Made by a program: the position numbers and the translations under genes
IMG/VR virus record: IMGVR_UViG_3300016674_000005
Location: 1 to 36,236 of that record
Strand: one strand, 5' to 3'
From: a virus
Lineage: Duplodnaviria; Caudoviricetes
Length of the DNA: 36,236 nucleotides
Notes under the pieces: model-generated
What the model was told of the DNA's origin: nothing
Seen by the model: only the letters and a program-made list of their open reading frames with translations
Databases searched by the model: none
In this document: in pieces, positions 24,934 to 32,828 of the stretch
How positions within the stretch are numbered: the stretch's first letter is position 1
Layout: every line of letters begins with the position of its first letter

Positions 24934-25302
24934 TTACTTTGCTCTCTTTGCCTTGCTCATGGCTTCTTGTTCTTTTTGTTTTTGCGCGTAGTAGCGTGAT
25001 AATTCAGCTTCTGCTACTTGCAATAGTTCAAATACTTGTCGTCTATCCTCTATGTCGTATATATCCATTATAGTGCCTAAGCCACTATAGTCTTTACCCA
25101 TCCAAGTACCGCTCATACCTTCCCACTTATCTGGTAAAGTATTTAATAGTACTAGCGCTTGCTGTACTTCTAAGTCAAATGAGGCAGGGTCTACTGGGAT
25201 TTCTTCTTCAGCAGGCTCCCACCCCATCTGTTCGCACATAACTAAATACTGGTCAAGAGTTAAACCTCCGCCACCAAGCTGGTTGCGGAGGTAATTGGTT
25301 AG
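24934..25302 (-). CDS. Tail assembly chaperone T segment, expressed as a G-T fusion by -1 frameshift
   Basis: The -1 frame is open from the slippery site at 25308-25302 into ORF 25239-24934. Confidence 0.8.
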   Translation of the reverse strand, partial: LTNYLRNQLGGGGLTLDQYLVMCEQMGWEPAEEEIPVDPASFDLEVQQALVLLNTLPDKWEGMSGTWMGKDYSGLGTIMDIYDIEDRRQVFELLQVAEAELSRYYAQKQKEQEAMSKAKRAK

Positions 25303-25308
25303 TTTTTT
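25264..25308 (-). promoter_or_regulatory. Programmed -1 ribosomal frameshift signal
   Basis: A-AAA-AAC heptamer, 9-nt spacer, then hairpin ACCTCCGC-a-ACCA-gct-TGGT-g-GCGGAGGT. Confidence 0.85.
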
Positions 25309-25730
25309 GCGTTATCTTCAGCTTTTTTGCGCGAGAATTGTTCAAAATCAGCTAGAGAATCAGTAACAAATTGGTCAAAAACTGGGGAGTTTTTCAGCAA
25401 TTCTACAGCTTCTTCAGGGCTATATTCTAGCTCATCGTCTGGTTTAAAGCTGCTTATATCTACTGGCATAAGCAGAGGAAGATGTTTAATTTTTAAACCC
25501 TTCCATCCTGAAATTGCGCGTTCTGCATAGTTTTCTAGAAATTTTGCGCTATCAACTTCTTCTTCACGTTGACGAGTGCGCTTATTAAATTTATAAGTTA
25601 AGCTAGCTGAACGAATTTTCAGTAGTTCTTCTCTTGTAATAAAGCGAAGATTTACTTCAAAACCAGGTATATCTGGAAATTCTACCCAGGTAGAAGTGTC
25701 TTGTACTAGCATTGATTTTAGTTTACTCAT
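25299..25730 (-). CDS. Tail assembly chaperone G-like
   Basis: Between tail tube and tape measure genes; ATG 25730 with GAGGG RBS; ends GCA AAA AAC TAA. Confidence 0.85.
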   Translation of the reverse strand: MSKLKSMLVQDTSTWVEFPDIPGFEVNLRFITREELLKIRSASLTYKFNKRTRQREEEVDSAKFLENYAERAISGWKGLKIKHLPLLMPVDISSFKPDDELEYSPEEAVELLKNSPVFDQFVTDSLADFEQFSRKKAEDNAKN

Positions 25731-25732
25731 TG

Positions 25733-25849
25733 GTTTCCCTCTATAAAAGTGAGCGTCCATCGGGGAATCTGCTAAGCAAAGTGAGGGGAAACTTTGTTTC
25801 GCAAGCCGATAGACGCTCTCTGGTTAAATCTTGTAATTATTTCCCCTCA
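25733..25849 (-). promoter_or_regulatory. Structured intergenic RNA element between the tail tube and chaperone genes
   Basis: 13-bp stem (25818-25806 with 25763-25751), inner hairpin CAAAGT/ACTTTG, and a loop complementary to both 25849-25840 and the downstream SD region. Confidence 0.65.
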
Positions 25850-25856
25850 GAAATTA

Positions 25857-27086
25857 TTACTTCTTGGCAGTTATTACAACTTCTCCGCCATCACCTTTTG
25901 AAGCTGTTGGCTCTTGTGCTACGAAGTTAACGCTTACCGCGATTACGTCTTCGATAGCAGTTTGTGGGAAGTCAAATTGTACAGCTGGCATAAAGAATGA
26001 TACATATGGTGCTGTTGTACCGCCAATAATTAAGTTAGCATTTGCTGACTGGGCTGAAGTAGTACGAGTATCATTGATAATCTTGCGCATTAAACCAGCA
26101 GATTCATTATCATTAACGCGTAAGTACATTGTAGCAGAACCTGTAACAGCACGTGTACCAACAAACGAACCTATCGGAGTGTTCAGAGTATTTAGTTCTT
26201 CTGGAGATAGGTAAGTTAAGTTATTGTTATAATCAAAACTTAAAGCTGTAACTGGTAGTGTGAAAGCTGTGTTACCGCTACCATCATCATAGTTAATTTG
26301 GATGGTGCTTAAACGGTTCTTGATGAAAGAGTTTGTACCTAGTGAACCATTAACAGATGTTTGGTTGTATGGGTGGTAACTAGCAGCAGCTGTAAGGTTA
26401 GTAGCGTTAGCATTAGCTGTTTTGAATACAGCCTCAGCATTAGTTTTATTAGTGCCGATTAGTTGCTTTAGGCTTAGTCCCTGCCCTGTCCAAGTAACTG
26501 TAGCAATTTCCTCGATGCCAGCATCTACAGTAGCTTGTCCTACAGAGGAGTTAGCTACCTGATAGATTACGTTATCAAGTTTGAAATACATGTGCATTTC
26601 GCTAGGAACTGCGAAGTTAGATTTTGAAGCTGCTGTATTAGCTGCGGCTGCTACGGTTGTAGTACGCAGAATACCGCCGTTTTGCCAGGCAGACTGCATA
26701 GCTGTACCTGTGCTAGGACGAGTATTAGATACCAGTGACTGCCACATGAACCAGTCAGCGACTGGGCGTGAGTTAGAGCCTAGACCTACGTTAGCTCCCG
26801 GAGCGGCGGTTGATTCTGCTCCGGTTGGGCGTAGATATACTTGTAAGTTCCAGTCAACTGGGTTAACAGCAGTGTTGAAACGCTGCTGTGAGCGGTCTGG
26901 GTCAAGTCCAGATTCTAGTGAGGTAATGTCTTGTGTAGCTGATGAGGCAGTTACCGCGAAACCGGCTAAAACTTCGAGTTTCCAAGTGTTAGACGGAGTC
27001 ATTGTAGTTGCCGCAGCTCCGCTGGCTAAGTCTACAGTAGATACATAGACCTCAGAATTTCTTTGTAAATTAAGAGCTGTACTCAT
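25857..27086 (-). CDS. Major tail tube protein (T5 pb6-like)
   Basis: N-terminus LNLQRNSEVYVST...NTWKLEVLAGF, plus RFNTAVNPVDW, FIKNRL, NNNLTYLSPEEL, GTRAVTGS; AGGAG RBS. Confidence 0.88.
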   Translation of the reverse strand: MSTALNLQRNSEVYVSTVDLASGAAATTMTPSNTWKLEVLAGFAVTASSATQDITSLESGLDPDRSQQRFNTAVNPVDWNLQVYLRPTGAESTAAPGANVGLGSNSRPVADWFMWQSLVSNTRPSTGTAMQSAWQNGGILRTTTVAAAANTAASKSNFAVPSEMHMYFKLDNVIYQVANSSVGQATVDAGIEEIATVTWTGQGLSLKQLIGTNKTNAEAVFKTANANATNLTAAASYHPYNQTSVNGSLGTNSFIKNRLSTIQINYDDGSGNTAFTLPVTALSFDYNNNLTYLSPEELNTLNTPIGSFVGTRAVTGSATMYLRVNDNESAGLMRKIINDTRTTSAQSANANLIIGGTTAPYVSFFMPAVQFDFPQTAIEDVIAVSVNFVAQEPTASKGDGGEVVITAKK

Positions 27087-28861: not shown

Positions 28862-30186
28862 TACTTAATAATCCTATACAAGTCAAGAACCCTGCGTACA
28901 TGTGGTGGGAAGTTACCTGATAGCTCAAAGCTGTCTCCGCGCTCACCCTCAAAACTGAATGAACGTTTTTCTTGGTCTTGCTTGTATATAGTTTTGATGT
29001 AGTCGAGAGTAGCTATTTGTAAATCGTAAGGTACTTTACCGACTTCATATCCGGCTCTATAGTTAACTTTTACGCCGTTCGGGTATGGTGCAAAAGCAGC
29101 AGGCCCAGTAATGCTTAGTGCAGGGTATGACTTTTGCATTGAGCGATATGTGCGGAGTGTGCTTCCAGCACCAGTATCTTTTGTAATTTCGCCAGTGGTA
29201 GTAGAAAAGTTATATCCCTGAGGAGCGCTGTGCGCATCTTGTATATTCGCTTGCTGGTAAGTTTCATCGAAATGAATTAGTAGTGCTGTAGCTTCATCAG
29301 GTCTAAAGCGGTTTGAAGGTGGTTGAAAATCTGATACATAACGAGCTACGGTTGAAACTCGTACTTCATCTATATAGCCAGCAAATGTTTTACCTATTGA
29401 TAAGCTATTAGAGTAAGTCATATCTGTAGTAGCAACAAAAGTATTGGCTATTGTTGTGCCATTTAAATGTAGATATACTCTTTCTGAGACTGTATCTCTA
29501 GTGACAGCGACATGGTTCCAGTGACGCGGTACATATAGTTGGCTTTCGACTAGAGTATTAGCCCCTAGAATAGTAGAAGCAATCCCTGCTGTATTAGTAG
29601 TTAATGCTAGGCCATGAGCGTTAGCTAGTTTGAAATCTACAGAATTAGAAGCATTTTGCTCCATAGTAAAGATAGAGACGTTTTGCAAAGCACTATCAGT
29701 GCGGACAAACATCTCAATAGTAAAATCTCCTTCTCCAAAACGCAAGTCTGGAGATAAACTATTTGAGTAAATATACGATGTGTTTGATAACTTAGCACTG
29801 CTAGACCCAAATTTTTTAACTCTCGAACTTAGTTCGACAGTGCCTACTGATACTAAAGCAGTGCCTGGAGAGTTACCAATAGGACTCCCATCAACTTGTG
29901 GGTCAGTTAAAACAACATGCTTGCTACCGTTAAACTCTGTTACTTGATAGACTGCTGATAAAGGTAGTCTGTTAACAAAAACAGAAGAAACTCCTCCGTC
30001 AAACGTTTCAACATAGTCATTAGCTAATACTTCTTGCCCAATATAATGCTCAATAACGCCGGTAGCATAATGAATAATATTGCTCAACCTAGCATCTTGG
30101 GTATTGCTGCTTATACTAAGATAATCTTTAACTTGCGCAAGATTTATATATGCGTACTTGCCAAGACCTTCTTCTAAATTATTCAT
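28861..30186 (-). CDS. Head completion / head-tail adaptor with an inserted LamG/ConA-like domain
   Basis: Adaptor motifs INLAQVKDYL...DARL...IEHYIG and VKVNYRAGY..VPYDLQIA...VRRVLDLYR flank FTIEMFV...WNHVAVTR...GYIDEVRVS. Confidence 0.8.
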   Translation of the reverse strand: MNNLEEGLGKYAYINLAQVKDYLSISSNTQDARLSNIIHYATGVIEHYIGQEVLANDYVETFDGGVSSVFVNRLPLSAVYQVTEFNGSKHVVLTDPQVDGSPIGNSPGTALVSVGTVELSSRVKKFGSSSAKLSNTSYIYSNSLSPDLRFGEGDFTIEMFVRTDSALQNVSIFTMEQNASNSVDFKLANAHGLALTTNTAGIASTILGANTLVESQLYVPRHWNHVAVTRDTVSERVYLHLNGTTIANTFVATTDMTYSNSLSIGKTFAGYIDEVRVSTVARYVSDFQPPSNRFRPDEATALLIHFDETYQQANIQDAHSAPQGYNFSTTTGEITKDTGAGSTLRTYRSMQKSYPALSITGPAAFAPYPNGVKVNYRAGYEVGKVPYDLQIATLDYIKTIYKQDQEKRSFSFEGERGDSFELSGNFPPHVRRVLDLYRIIK

Positions 30187-30209
30187 TTTCTACACCTCTT
30201 ATTGAATAA

Positions 30210-30232
30210 GGGGAGGCGTTGACCGCCTCCCC
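30210..30232 (-). terminator. Intrinsic terminator after the major capsid gene
   Basis: GGGGAGGCG-gtcaa-CGCCTCCCC followed by TTATT on the - strand; the imperfect U tail suggests read-through. Confidence 0.75.
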
Positions 30233-30260
30233 CTGTTTAGTTCTAATTGTAAGCTAGCTA

Positions 30261-31619
30261 TTAAGCAGCAGCAGTGGAAACGTTTACTGCGTAAGCATAG
30301 CGTGAGCTTAGAGCTGCACTTGCTACAGTAGTTAGAGCTTTGAAATCGAAGCGAGTGCTTAGATACATTGCTGTAACTTGCTGACGTGGTTCGTATTCAC
30401 TTTCTACTTCAATACCGCGACGCTCAGCGATTAGGAAGCCTGGCTTATAGATTAGAGTACCGATTGTATTAGAAGCAGCAGCTGCAGAGTCCATGAACTC
30501 AGAAACTACGATTGGAATACCATATACAGCACCTACAGAACCAGTTAGATAAGTAGCGTTTGGTCCAAACTTATCTACTGTACGGAAGTCAGAAGTAGTT
30601 ACTAGGTTATTATAACCTTCGATAGAAGTTACATAAACTAGGTCGTTACCAAGCTGTAGACCATATTTACCCATAAGAGTACGAGCAGCAGCGATATCGC
30701 TTGGGTCGGCCTTATCAGTAGTAGTTCCTGTTGGAGTATTTAGAGACGCTGCTGCAGCAAGAGCAGTAATACCTTTGATAACAGAGGCATAACCAGTACC
30801 AGCAGTAATAGCGTTAGTTGGGGATGCAGTGAAGCCGGATAGAGCGCCAGTACCACGTAGGATGGACTTATCAATAGCGCGAGCTAGACGGCGAGTAGCT
30901 GCAGTACGTAGGAAGTCGATAAGTGGTAGAACTGTATCTTCTTCTTCGTCTTTTGCAAGGTGAGTAGAAGCCATGAACTTGTGTGGAGTAAACTCAACTG
31001 CAGAAATGCTGTGCTGATTGGATGTTGGTACGTTAGTTAGGTCAGCAATACCTGTTGCGTAAGTACCGCTAGCGAACATTGCTACATCACCATCAGTATC
31101 TTCGTCAGCTACTGGAACGCGGAAGCTCTTAGCATCAACTGGAATACGGTTGAACATTGGAGCAATAACTAGTTGCTGTTCCATTTCAGTGTAGATGTTG
31201 GAAGAGAAGTTGGATAGGAATAGGGTTTCGGAAGTAATTGCCTTCATACGGGAACCGTACTTAGTATCAAATACATCGCGCTTGTTTAGTAGCTTGGAAA
31301 GTAGAACAGCGTTAGCCATTTCTTTCTCAGAGAACTGAGAACCAGTGCGAGAGTTTTCTGCGTATAGCATTTTGCTATTCTGCAGAGCTTTAATCTCGTC
31401 ACGATACTTTGCCATCTGAGCCTGAAGTTCTTTAACTTCATCAGATTGTGTTGGTGTATAAGCACCAGCTTTTTCTTTTGCATCAGCTTCCTTGAGAATA
31501 GCTTCACCAGTTTTTTCAACTAGATCAGCAACTCGTGGTGCTGAGACAGTAGCCACGCTTTTGTTAACTTCGGCTTTTGCCTCGGTTAGGTCGATAGATT
31601 CTACGACTTGTTCAGCCAT
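30261..31619 (-). CDS. Major capsid protein from an internal in-frame start (452 aa, MAEQVVE...)
   Basis: AAGGAG (31634-31629) lies 9 nt before in-frame ATG 31619; the product begins with a coiled-coil delta-domain-like region. Confidence 0.72.
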   Translation of the reverse strand: MAEQVVESIDLTEAKAEVNKSVATVSAPRVADLVEKTGEAILKEADAKEKAGAYTPTQSDEVKELQAQMAKYRDEIKALQNSKMLYAENSRTGSQFSEKEMANAVLLSKLLNKRDVFDTKYGSRMKAITSETLFLSNFSSNIYTEMEQQLVIAPMFNRIPVDAKSFRVPVADEDTDGDVAMFASGTYATGIADLTNVPTSNQHSISAVEFTPHKFMASTHLAKDEEEDTVLPLIDFLRTAATRRLARAIDKSILRGTGALSGFTASPTNAITAGTGYASVIKGITALAAAASLNTPTGTTTDKADPSDIAAARTLMGKYGLQLGNDLVYVTSIEGYNNLVTTSDFRTVDKFGPNATYLTGSVGAVYGIPIVVSEFMDSAAAASNTIGTLIYKPGFLIAERRGIEVESEYEPRQQVTAMYLSTRFDFKALTTVASAALSSRYAYAVNVSTAAA

Positions 31620-32828
31620 TTTGTCGTTCTCCTTTGTTGAATCTTCGTGAAGGGCTTCTGAGGATTGTTCTTTAGAAACTGTATCTTCACTCATAGTCTT
31701 AATTGTTTTATTGATTTGTGATATCTCGTCTGTATTCACATTAATAGTATTATCACAGTCTTTACCGTTCGCGTCAACTTCTAAAAATTTAAAGTTTGGG
31801 TTTTGGACAGTTGGCGTCTCGGCTACCTTGTAGAATTTTTCTTTGTAATTTACAAGGTCTCCAGCTTTGATACTTTCTACTTCTGCAGATAGCAGATTGA
31901 TAAACGGAATACTAGCATTAGGGTCTACTATATCGTCTATCTCTTCGACTTCCTCAGTTTCTTCAACTGCGGCAACGTCTTTAGTAGCTGTTTCTAGCTC
32001 AGATTTTTCACTTAGTTCTTCTGACTTACCAATTGCTTCTAATTCAGAAGGAGATAGAGGACGCTCATTAATTTCAGCCTCTTCTTCAGTTGCAACAGGG
32101 ACACCTACTACAGCTATTGAGTGTGTGTGCCCCATAGCTTCTTGTATCTCACCATTTACAATTTTATGTGCGTGGTTTTGCATATGAGAAGTATAAGTTG
32201 TAACACCATTACCTTCATCATCTACTTCAATAGTGTGGTAGTGACCATCAACTATATCTGTATAACCAGCTTTGATTCCGTCCATCATTCTTTTTTCTTC
32301 AATGGAAGCTTCTTTAAAAGAAGAGATGAATGAATTATACTCTTCAGTATTTTCAAAGCTTTTTCTAATACTGAATAGAGATTCTTGGTTACAAGGCACG
32401 CTTACTACTGAGATTTCTAGTAGTTCAACGTCTGTAATCAGCATAGTGTCATCTTTGCTGTTATATTTACCGTCTTTGACTCTAAAGCCAACACTGAAAC
32501 TTTTTAAAGCTCCATCTTTGATTAGCGTATGGATTCCGTGTGTTTTCTCAGCGGCTTCACTTACGCTACCTTCCACATAAATACCTTTTTTATCAACCGT
32601 AATTTTATCAAAACGGCCAATAGGGCATTCATGCTTGTGTTGATATAGCATAACAGGGTTTTTTCTAAAATTCTCTACGCCTTTTGCCCATGCTTCGGCT
32701 GTAACAACATCTCCTGCACGGTCTTTGGCAGTAGTATTGGCATACCCTGCTATTTTTAAGGATTTAGATTCCTTACCTACAGCTTTAGCTTCGAAAGAAC
32801 TATCTAAATAAAATGTTTTATTAATCAT
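30261..32828 (-). CDS. HK97-type prohead protease-major capsid protein fusion
   Basis: Protease motifs IAGYANT..DRAGD, MLYQH, FSVGF, LLEISVVSVPCN; His-rich/acidic linker; C-terminal HK97-fold capsid region. Confidence 0.9.
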   Translation of the reverse strand: MINKTFYLDSSFEAKAVGKESKSLKIAGYANTTAKDRAGDVVTAEAWAKGVENFRKNPVMLYQHKHECPIGRFDKITVDKKGIYVEGSVSEAAEKTHGIHTLIKDGALKSFSVGFRVKDGKYNSKDDTMLITDVELLEISVVSVPCNQESLFSIRKSFENTEEYNSFISSFKEASIEEKRMMDGIKAGYTDIVDGHYHTIEVDDEGNGVTTYTSHMQNHAHKIVNGEIQEAMGHTHSIAVVGVPVATEEEAEINERPLSPSELEAIGKSEELSEKSELETATKDVAAVEETEEVEEIDDIVDPNASIPFINLLSAEVESIKAGDLVNYKEKFYKVAETPTVQNPNFKFLEVDANGKDCDNTINVNTDEISQINKTIKTMSEDTVSKEQSSEALHEDSTKENDKMAEQVVESIDLTEAKAEVNKSVATVSAPRVADLVEKTGEAILKEADAKEKAGAYTPTQSDEVKELQAQMAKYRDEIKALQNSKMLYAENSRTGSQFSEKEMANAVLLSKLLNKRDVFDTKYGSRMKAITSETLFLSNFSSNIYTEMEQQLVIAPMFNRIPVDAKSFRVPVADEDTDGDVAMFASGTYATGIADLTNVPTSNQHSISAVEFTPHKFMASTHLAKDEEEDTVLPLIDFLRTAATRRLARAIDKSILRGTGALSGFTASPTNAITAGTGYASVIKGITALAAAASLNTPTGTTTDKADPSDIAAARTLMGKYGLQLGNDLVYVTSIEGYNNLVTTSDFRTVDKFGPNATYLTGSVGAVYGIPIVVSEFMDSAAAASNTIGTLIYKPGFLIAERRGIEVESEYEPRQQVTAMYLSTRFDFKALTTVASAALSSRYAYAVNVSTAAA
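31749..31777 (-). promoter_or_regulatory. Putative intragenic sigma70 promoter for the major capsid protein
   Basis: TTGACG (31777-31772), 17-nt spacer, GATAAT (31754-31749), with extended -10 TG. Confidence 0.62.

Follow-up and report, generated by a model that had tools for sequence, protein, structure and literature searches.

A single phage operon yields hundreds of tail tube subunits yet few tape-measure proteins, an imbalance that is generally ascribed to plain leaky terminators. Other RNA devices that adjust gene expression are well known. Kissing-loop or SD-sequestering pseudoknots form the expression platforms of the cobalamin class II, preQ1 and SAM-II riboswitches, and both ribosome-dependent attenuators and translational coupling by RNA unfolding have been established. 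Loop pairing between molecules is known from the phi29 packaging RNA, which forms dimers or rings in this way. Here we describe an RNA element of 130 bases, conserved in uncultured T5-like phages, that separates their tail-tube gene from the tail-chaperone gene and has two loops complementary to each other. It was found in a viral sequence of 36,236 nucleotides (IMG/VR record IMGVR_UViG_3300016674_000005; this whole stretch is referred to as the window).

The window contains the late operon of a T5-like phage in the order terminase, portal, protease-capsid, tail terminator, tail tube, two chaperone frames and tape measure. All features described below are on the minus strand. The tail tube, or major tail protein, is T5-like and has 409 residues (25857..27086; phrog_3575, E 7.7e-48), and the chaperone has 143 residues (25299..25730; phrog_313, E 3.2e-16). 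The spacer from the tube stop codon (25859-25857) to the chaperone ATG (25730) is 132 nt. A longer, 153-residue chaperone initiating at an in-frame ATG at 25760 was considered unlikely, as the homologues align from the ATG at 25730. Near the end of the chaperone gene is the slippery heptamer A AAA AAC (25308-25302), followed by a strong hairpin at approximately 25292-25264; from the sequence, this is recognizable as the usual -1 frameshift site leading into the second chaperone frame (24934-25239), and the heptamer was found close to the chaperone end in 55 of 56 representative relatives. Elsewhere in the operon, the prohead protease and major capsid protein are fused into a single 855-residue ORF (30261-32828); the three cultured Demerecviridae we inspected encode them separately. 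The fused gene is followed directly by a GC-rich hairpin of 11 bp that ends in a short U-rich tail (30186-30261), likely an ordinary leaky terminator judging by its sequence. A phage collection contained 906 matching tubes, all of them less than 60% identical to that of the window, and the clade of the window therefore has no close cultured member in that collection; identity to Demerecviridae tubes was approximately 24–29% among the 40 matches listed of the 906.

The first-pass annotation of this locus had proposed a long stem between 25818-25806 and 25763-25751, enclosing a hairpin formed by CAAAGU (25796-25791) and ACUUUG (25782-25777), and both were confirmed, the former as a 13-bp helix with one U·G pair (hereafter P1) and the latter as the tip of the structure above it. 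It had also reported a perfect 10-nt complementarity between UUUCCCCUCA (25791-25782) and UGAGGGGAAA (25849-25840), the latter following closely on the tube stop, and this was correct; no second such complement occurs in the window at up to one mismatch. That the whole of 25791-25782 is a loop was correct only in part, since 25791 and 25782 close the hairpin and the true apical loop is of 8 nt (UUCCCCUC, 25790-25783). This loop, L2, is unpaired in the nested fold and resembles an anti-SD sequence. Similarly, UGAGGGGAAA, described as an upstream decoy, is indeed positioned after the tube stop, but it is not free: it is the loop and 3' arm of a hairpin of its own, P0 (25839..25854), which in the MFE structure has a 6-bp core (25854-25849 : 25844-25839), extendable towards 25834 and the stop codon, and a GAGG loop (25848-25845). 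UGAGGGGAAA (25840..25849) resembles an SD, but no start codon follows it.

The first-pass annotation had overlooked that the upstream GAGGGG forms the loop of a separate, covarying hairpin, as well as the terminator features of the element and several of its parts. Between the two arms of P1 (25806..25818 and 25751..25763, the latter containing the in-frame ATG), there is approximately 42 nt of further structure. This comprises an upper rod (25769..25804), made of a 4-bp helix P1b (25804-25801 : 25772-25769), a purine-rich internal loop and the hairpin P2 (25796-25791 : 25782-25777), and a 5-nt bulge on the 3' side between P1b and P1 (25764..25768), the first A of which is conserved (56/57 at that column) and which may possibly act as a hinge. 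P1, a stem of the terminator type, is followed by a U-rich tail, ACUUUUAU (25743..25750), which is weak in the window genome, and then by the SD region of the chaperone, GAGGGAAAC (25733..25741), a possible second partner of L2. The fold of the region had a z-score of -2.98. Among 500 dinucleotide shuffles of the spacer, none had a 10-nt loop complement (mean 4.9) and three folded equally well.

To examine conservation, loci of relatives were gathered by tube protein, by chaperone and by DNA pattern. This provided 432 loci (many being the same contig twice), of which 378 had a full spacer, corresponding to 134 distinct spacers. As 118 of these 134 were present in protein-selected loci, they are independent of the DNA pattern. 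The 50 loci without a listed spacer were mostly incomplete, and included 14 pattern hits matching neither protein and two tube paralogues (L429 and L500). The pattern had 120 viral hits in all; the other 106 were beside a tube or chaperone gene. The 134 spacers were reduced to 57 representative lineages at less than 90% identity (34 from the close clade of the window and 23 distant), on which later counts are based. The element was kept in all 134 distinct tube-to-chaperone spacers, next to tubes that were 49–100% identical, and every spacer had GAGGG followed by CCCUC. No loci were found for tubes at 40–48% identity, a range in which the boundary between the element and the plain terminators described below may lie.

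Covariation, which the first-pass annotation had proposed as a check, was seen in the nested helices. Changes on both sides were found for all 27 nested pairs (P0 6/6, P1 13/13, P1b 4/4 and P2 4/4) in an alignment that was fitted to the model and includes two spurious reverse-strand rows, and for 13 of the 27 pairs that RNAalifold predicted from an unfitted MAFFT alignment of 39 close spacers. In the fitted alignment 97.8% of cells were paired, compared to 77.9% after shuffling and at most 52% after sliding. A covariance model trained on the close clade matched all 57 representatives, including the 23 distant ones outside the training set (E 1e-10 to 0.025), and had no match in 50 control sources or in the eight of the 14 protein-less pattern hits that were scored. 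P1 was of 11–15 bp with 5–9 G-C pairs (mean 7) in 57/57. The internal spacing of the element was fixed to about ±1.5 nt: the distance from the P1 base to the kissing C was 35.0±1.6 nt, the 3' arm 32.5±1.3 nt, the rod 24±2 bp and the distance from the kiss G to P1 27.7±2.6 nt. Together, the shuffles and the conservation ruled out a chance origin. A mobile or repeated element was also ruled out; there is a single copy in the window.

Tube paralogues offered a further view of where the element occurs. One contig (L429:2501-3856 and L389) carries two of them approximately 3 kb apart. The first, which is extended at its C terminus, lies before a 693-residue fibre-like ORF and lacks the element, and the second precedes the chaperone and carries the element. 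In L500, a tube paralogue lies directly before another gene with neither chaperone nor element. Short contigs binned into two MAGs, one of Melainabacteria and one of SAR86 (L514 and L515), also carried the tube gene and element; they may be mis-binned phage DNA and do not indicate a host. Contig pieces spanning the element were identified in three RNA libraries (X5, X12 and X17), although the RNA evidence consists of contigs with thin cover from eight of 24 listed runs, from which strand, ends and level are not readable. The X17 contig matches the window only across the element, which is therefore better conserved than the flanking coding DNA.

The pseudoknot proposed in the first-pass annotation held in its main part: the RNA is structured, conserved and covarying, and has a pseudoknot-type contact of its apical loop with the bases that follow the tube stop. 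The chaperone SD as a second partner was supported only in part. Based on the alignments, the conserved contact is most likely a loop-loop kiss at fixed spacing. A loop-to-loop reading suits the data best, since the two independently formed hairpins are both preserved: all of the P0 (6/6) and P2 (4/4) pairs covary, and P0 reaches 12–13 GC-rich pairs in the L414 group. The kiss loops were unpaired in most nested folds, and six consecutive kiss pairs are possible in 57/57 lineages (positions 1–5 being the anchors, present in 134/134). At the edges of the kiss, position +7 was paired in 51/57 (G:C 28, A:U 12, G:U 11; 44.6 when shuffled) and +8 in 39/57 (24 when shuffled). Tree-aware pair tests at these two positions, on a quick tree and a FastTree tree, had only 6–7 independent pairs, were underpowered and were not significant (median p 0.38–0.63). 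In L460 and L476 both complementary runs are one base shorter than in L275. The core being invariant, the evidence for the kiss is that its two exposed and complementary loops do not vary while the stems around them covary freely; it is not a proven covariation. If intramolecular, the kiss would need a sharp bend, probably at the A-led bulge, based on the lengths of the parts and standard helix dimensions. A GAGG:CCUC helix was present in the MFE structure of a transcript cut just past the loop in 46/57 lineages, and therefore the kiss helix can precede P1.

With regard to termination, at least five U in an 8-nt window starting 0–2 nt after P1 were found in 49/57 lineages, compared to 18% of 1170 background windows. 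The tract was present in 22 of 23 distant lineages (at least six U in 19) and in 27 of 34 lineages of the close clade (at least six U in 13). It was weaker near the window, with a mean of 1.2 U in the first three bases after P1 in its subclade versus 2.6 in the distant clades; the tail of L069 has almost no U and that of the window starts with A and C. P1 is a GC-rich stem of at least 7 bp, as in intrinsic terminators, but it lacks their short loop of 3–8 nt, and a standard terminator scan, whose loop limit is 8 nt, did not call the site.

As an outgroup we used 80 distant T5-like loci, in which the tube gene was directly before the chaperone in 38, a gene was between them in 29 and 13 were not scorable. 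The 38 loci gave 25 distinct spacers, of which 22 had a plain hairpin with at least five U and none had the kiss motif. In the three cultured Demerecviridae inspected, a further gene follows the tube by 4–14 nt, leaving no room for an element. These comparisons suggest that the slot commonly carries a terminator and that the element would be an elaborated one. In 20 of the 80 outgroup loci (L294-L296, L301, L302, L310, L312, L315, L317, L324, L325, L339, L350, L351, L353, L357, L359-L362), the plain terminator after the tube gene has a conserved loop, G(G/C)(U/C)UGAUC(A/C/U)CC, with a palindromic GAUC, which could represent a protein site or another regulated element.

Our preferred reading, to which we give about an even chance, is that the element is a pseudoknotted leaky terminator and 3'-end stabilizer tuned by the kiss. 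The leaky terminator is proposed because of the U-tract in most lineages and the plain terminator in the same slot of distant relatives. Termination at the U-tract would be frequent, leaving a surplus of tube mRNA, which the compact pseudoknot would cap against 3' exonucleases. The remaining transcripts would read through to the chaperone, its frameshifted extension and the tape measure, such that the leaky stop would set the amount of tube relative to the later tail proteins. The kiss could form approximately 30 nt before P1 is complete and would tune the speed at which P1 closes and hence, we propose, the fraction of read-through. Ribosomes finishing the tube gene may also modulate read-through by melting P0. 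As the U-tract is weak in the subclade of the window, high read-through is predicted there and the role as stabilizer, or one at the SD, may weigh more. A terminator alone leaves unexplained the invariable GAGG/CCUC kiss and the GAGG-type SD of the chaperone.

The SD is central to the first alternative, a translational switch on the read-through mRNA in which the apical loop would sit on either the P0 loop or the chaperone SD, and tube-terminating ribosomes would melt P0 and thereby shift the loop to the SD. The first-pass annotation had noted that GUUUCCC in the loop complements the SD region, and this is real, as it pairs with GGGAAAC. The complementarity is unusual: the chaperone SD has GAGG in 54/57 lineages and in none of 25 outgroup phages without the element, and has GAGGG in about 40 of 56, compared to 0/56 tube SDs and 2/87 upstream ORFs. 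The anti-SD core of the 16S tail is CCUCC, and the extra G brings no improvement in pairing to that tail. The duplex with the loop is stronger for the chaperone SD than for the tube SD (mean -10.9 vs -4.6 kcal/mol), with no gain in anti-SD pairing (-6.1 vs -7.0). In addition, SD position +10 was paired with the loop in 31/54 lineages (23.8 when shuffled), the sole position above the shuffles, a core complementarity of 4–6 bp was kept in 54/57, and an SD switch would account for the kiss sequence being locked while every other helix covaries.

The claim for the SD as a partner did not extend to covariation, fixed spacing or universality, however. No covariation was detected at +5 to +9 (e.g., +7 was paired in 17/54 versus 20.5 when shuffled), tree-aware tests here being underpowered, and the distance from P1 to the SD floats between 6 and 23 nt. 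L412, L423 and L457, which belong to two separate clades on the quick tree (L412 with L423, and L457), have no GAGG SD and cannot pair with the loop (-2.5 to -3.1 kcal/mol), yet they retain the kiss, and the kiss therefore has a role independent of the SD. The shift in the SD was also a single evolutionary event, the tube SD is equally conserved (56/56), and a 9-nt linker would have to span the 24-bp rod, for which a sharp bend would be needed. The stop-to-GAGG distance of 8–24 nt is loose for the annotation's switch, in which a ribosome at the tube stop masks the decoy. We consider the SD switch possible though rather unlikely, and it may coexist with termination. A secondary SD contact may exist in most lineages and would explain the locked kiss sequence.

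A more speculative proposal, which we view as doubtful, combines the two layers, with translation of the tube gene coupled to both read-through and chaperone translation in a protein-free RNA gauge of tail-part stoichiometry. In such a device the SD look-alike in the P0 loop at the tube stop would kiss the loop resembling an anti-SD that caps a hinged terminator rod, and the closed ring formed during transcription would topologically slow closure of the terminator stem. Terminating ribosomes would release the kiss, and the freed loop could then clamp the chaperone SD.

The dimensions of the rod raise the possibility of an RNase III-type site, at which a fixed-length bulged rod would be nicked, splitting the tube and chaperone messages, while the kiss stabilized the upstream product. 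The rod of 24±2 bp is near the 22 bp of an idealized substrate, though it is interrupted, and P1 has one purine-U pair that hardly varies (U in 55/57). RNase III targets with loops or bulges are described in PMC3867540 as receiving single-strand cuts that leave stabilizing 3' ends. Against this, the longest continuous helix in the element is only 11–15 bp, and the U-tract and the plain terminators of the outgroup would be unexplained, and we give this reading a low probability. Equally improbable in our view is a feedback operator or sensor, in which read-through or translation would be switched when a small ligand, or a phage protein (the tube or free chaperone), binds the kissed fold. Several unpaired or non-covarying bases outside the kiss are nearly invariant (A25821, A25799, A25768 and the C25801-G25772 pair) and the element is restricted to the tube copy that precedes the chaperone, but conserved bases outside the loops are few and no riboswitch in Rfam matches. 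Finally, loop pairing between molecules, with processed RNAs of approximately 110 nt or mRNA ends forming dimers or rings by analogy to phi29 packaging RNA, would relieve the strain of an intramolecular kiss (approximately 110 Å for a linker of 13±4 nt, assuming A-form dimensions, unless the rod bends), but is highly improbable given that no promoter-like site was found at the 5' end of the element, no free small RNA was evident from the thin RNA contigs and an intramolecular fold accords with the fixed 5' spacing.

The element is a real cis-acting RNA and apparently an undescribed one. The first-pass annotation recognized no named RNA family, and a check of Rfam 15 agreed, with no hits in the window at the gathering cut-off and no credible family at E up to 10, the best local hits (E 0.8–4.4) being far below gathering. 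No description of it was found in the literature searched, although it may be listed as an unnamed candidate in PMC10690425 (alignment archives) or PMC5737381 (supplement). PMC10690425 covers approximately 8,500 candidate RNAs of DNA viruses, and string searches of its supplementary files 3–6 did not find the element. One lineage would have replaced a plain terminator by a length-calibrated pseudoknotted RNA and kept it across tubes down to 49% identity. The element would constitute a new RNA family. Its small size and numerous natural variants make it amenable to tests in vitro and in E. coli reporters, and it is well suited to asking whether intrinsic termination is tuned by a tertiary contact or by an upstream ribosome.

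Among known systems, the RNase III processing hairpins of PMC3867540 resemble the element in having a rod roughly two helical turns long and a loop on one side; the element differs in its continuous helix of only 11–15 bp, and its conserved U-tract and kiss are not features of RNase III sites. Closer are the intercistronic Rho-independent terminators found after abundant phage structural genes, as in the distant T5-like loci L284-L362, which have the same slot, a GC-rich stem and a U-tract. The element departs from these plain terminators in that its stem encloses approximately 42 nt, its tip complements the loop of an upstream hairpin and its tail is weak in the subclade of the window. Like the riboswitch platforms, it has a hairpin loop complementary to an SD-like sequence and loop-loop pairing. 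Unlike them, it has no match in Rfam, sits between structural genes, has few conserved core bases from which a ligand pocket could be made and has its best-conserved partner upstream rather than at the SD. With attenuators and translationally coupled genes it shares a structure that starts -3 to +13 nt from an upstream stop codon and an alternative helix that can form before the terminator is complete. It has no leader peptide, however, and, because both hairpins covary, the kissed state and P1 can coexist, whereas the alternative structures of an attenuator exclude each other.
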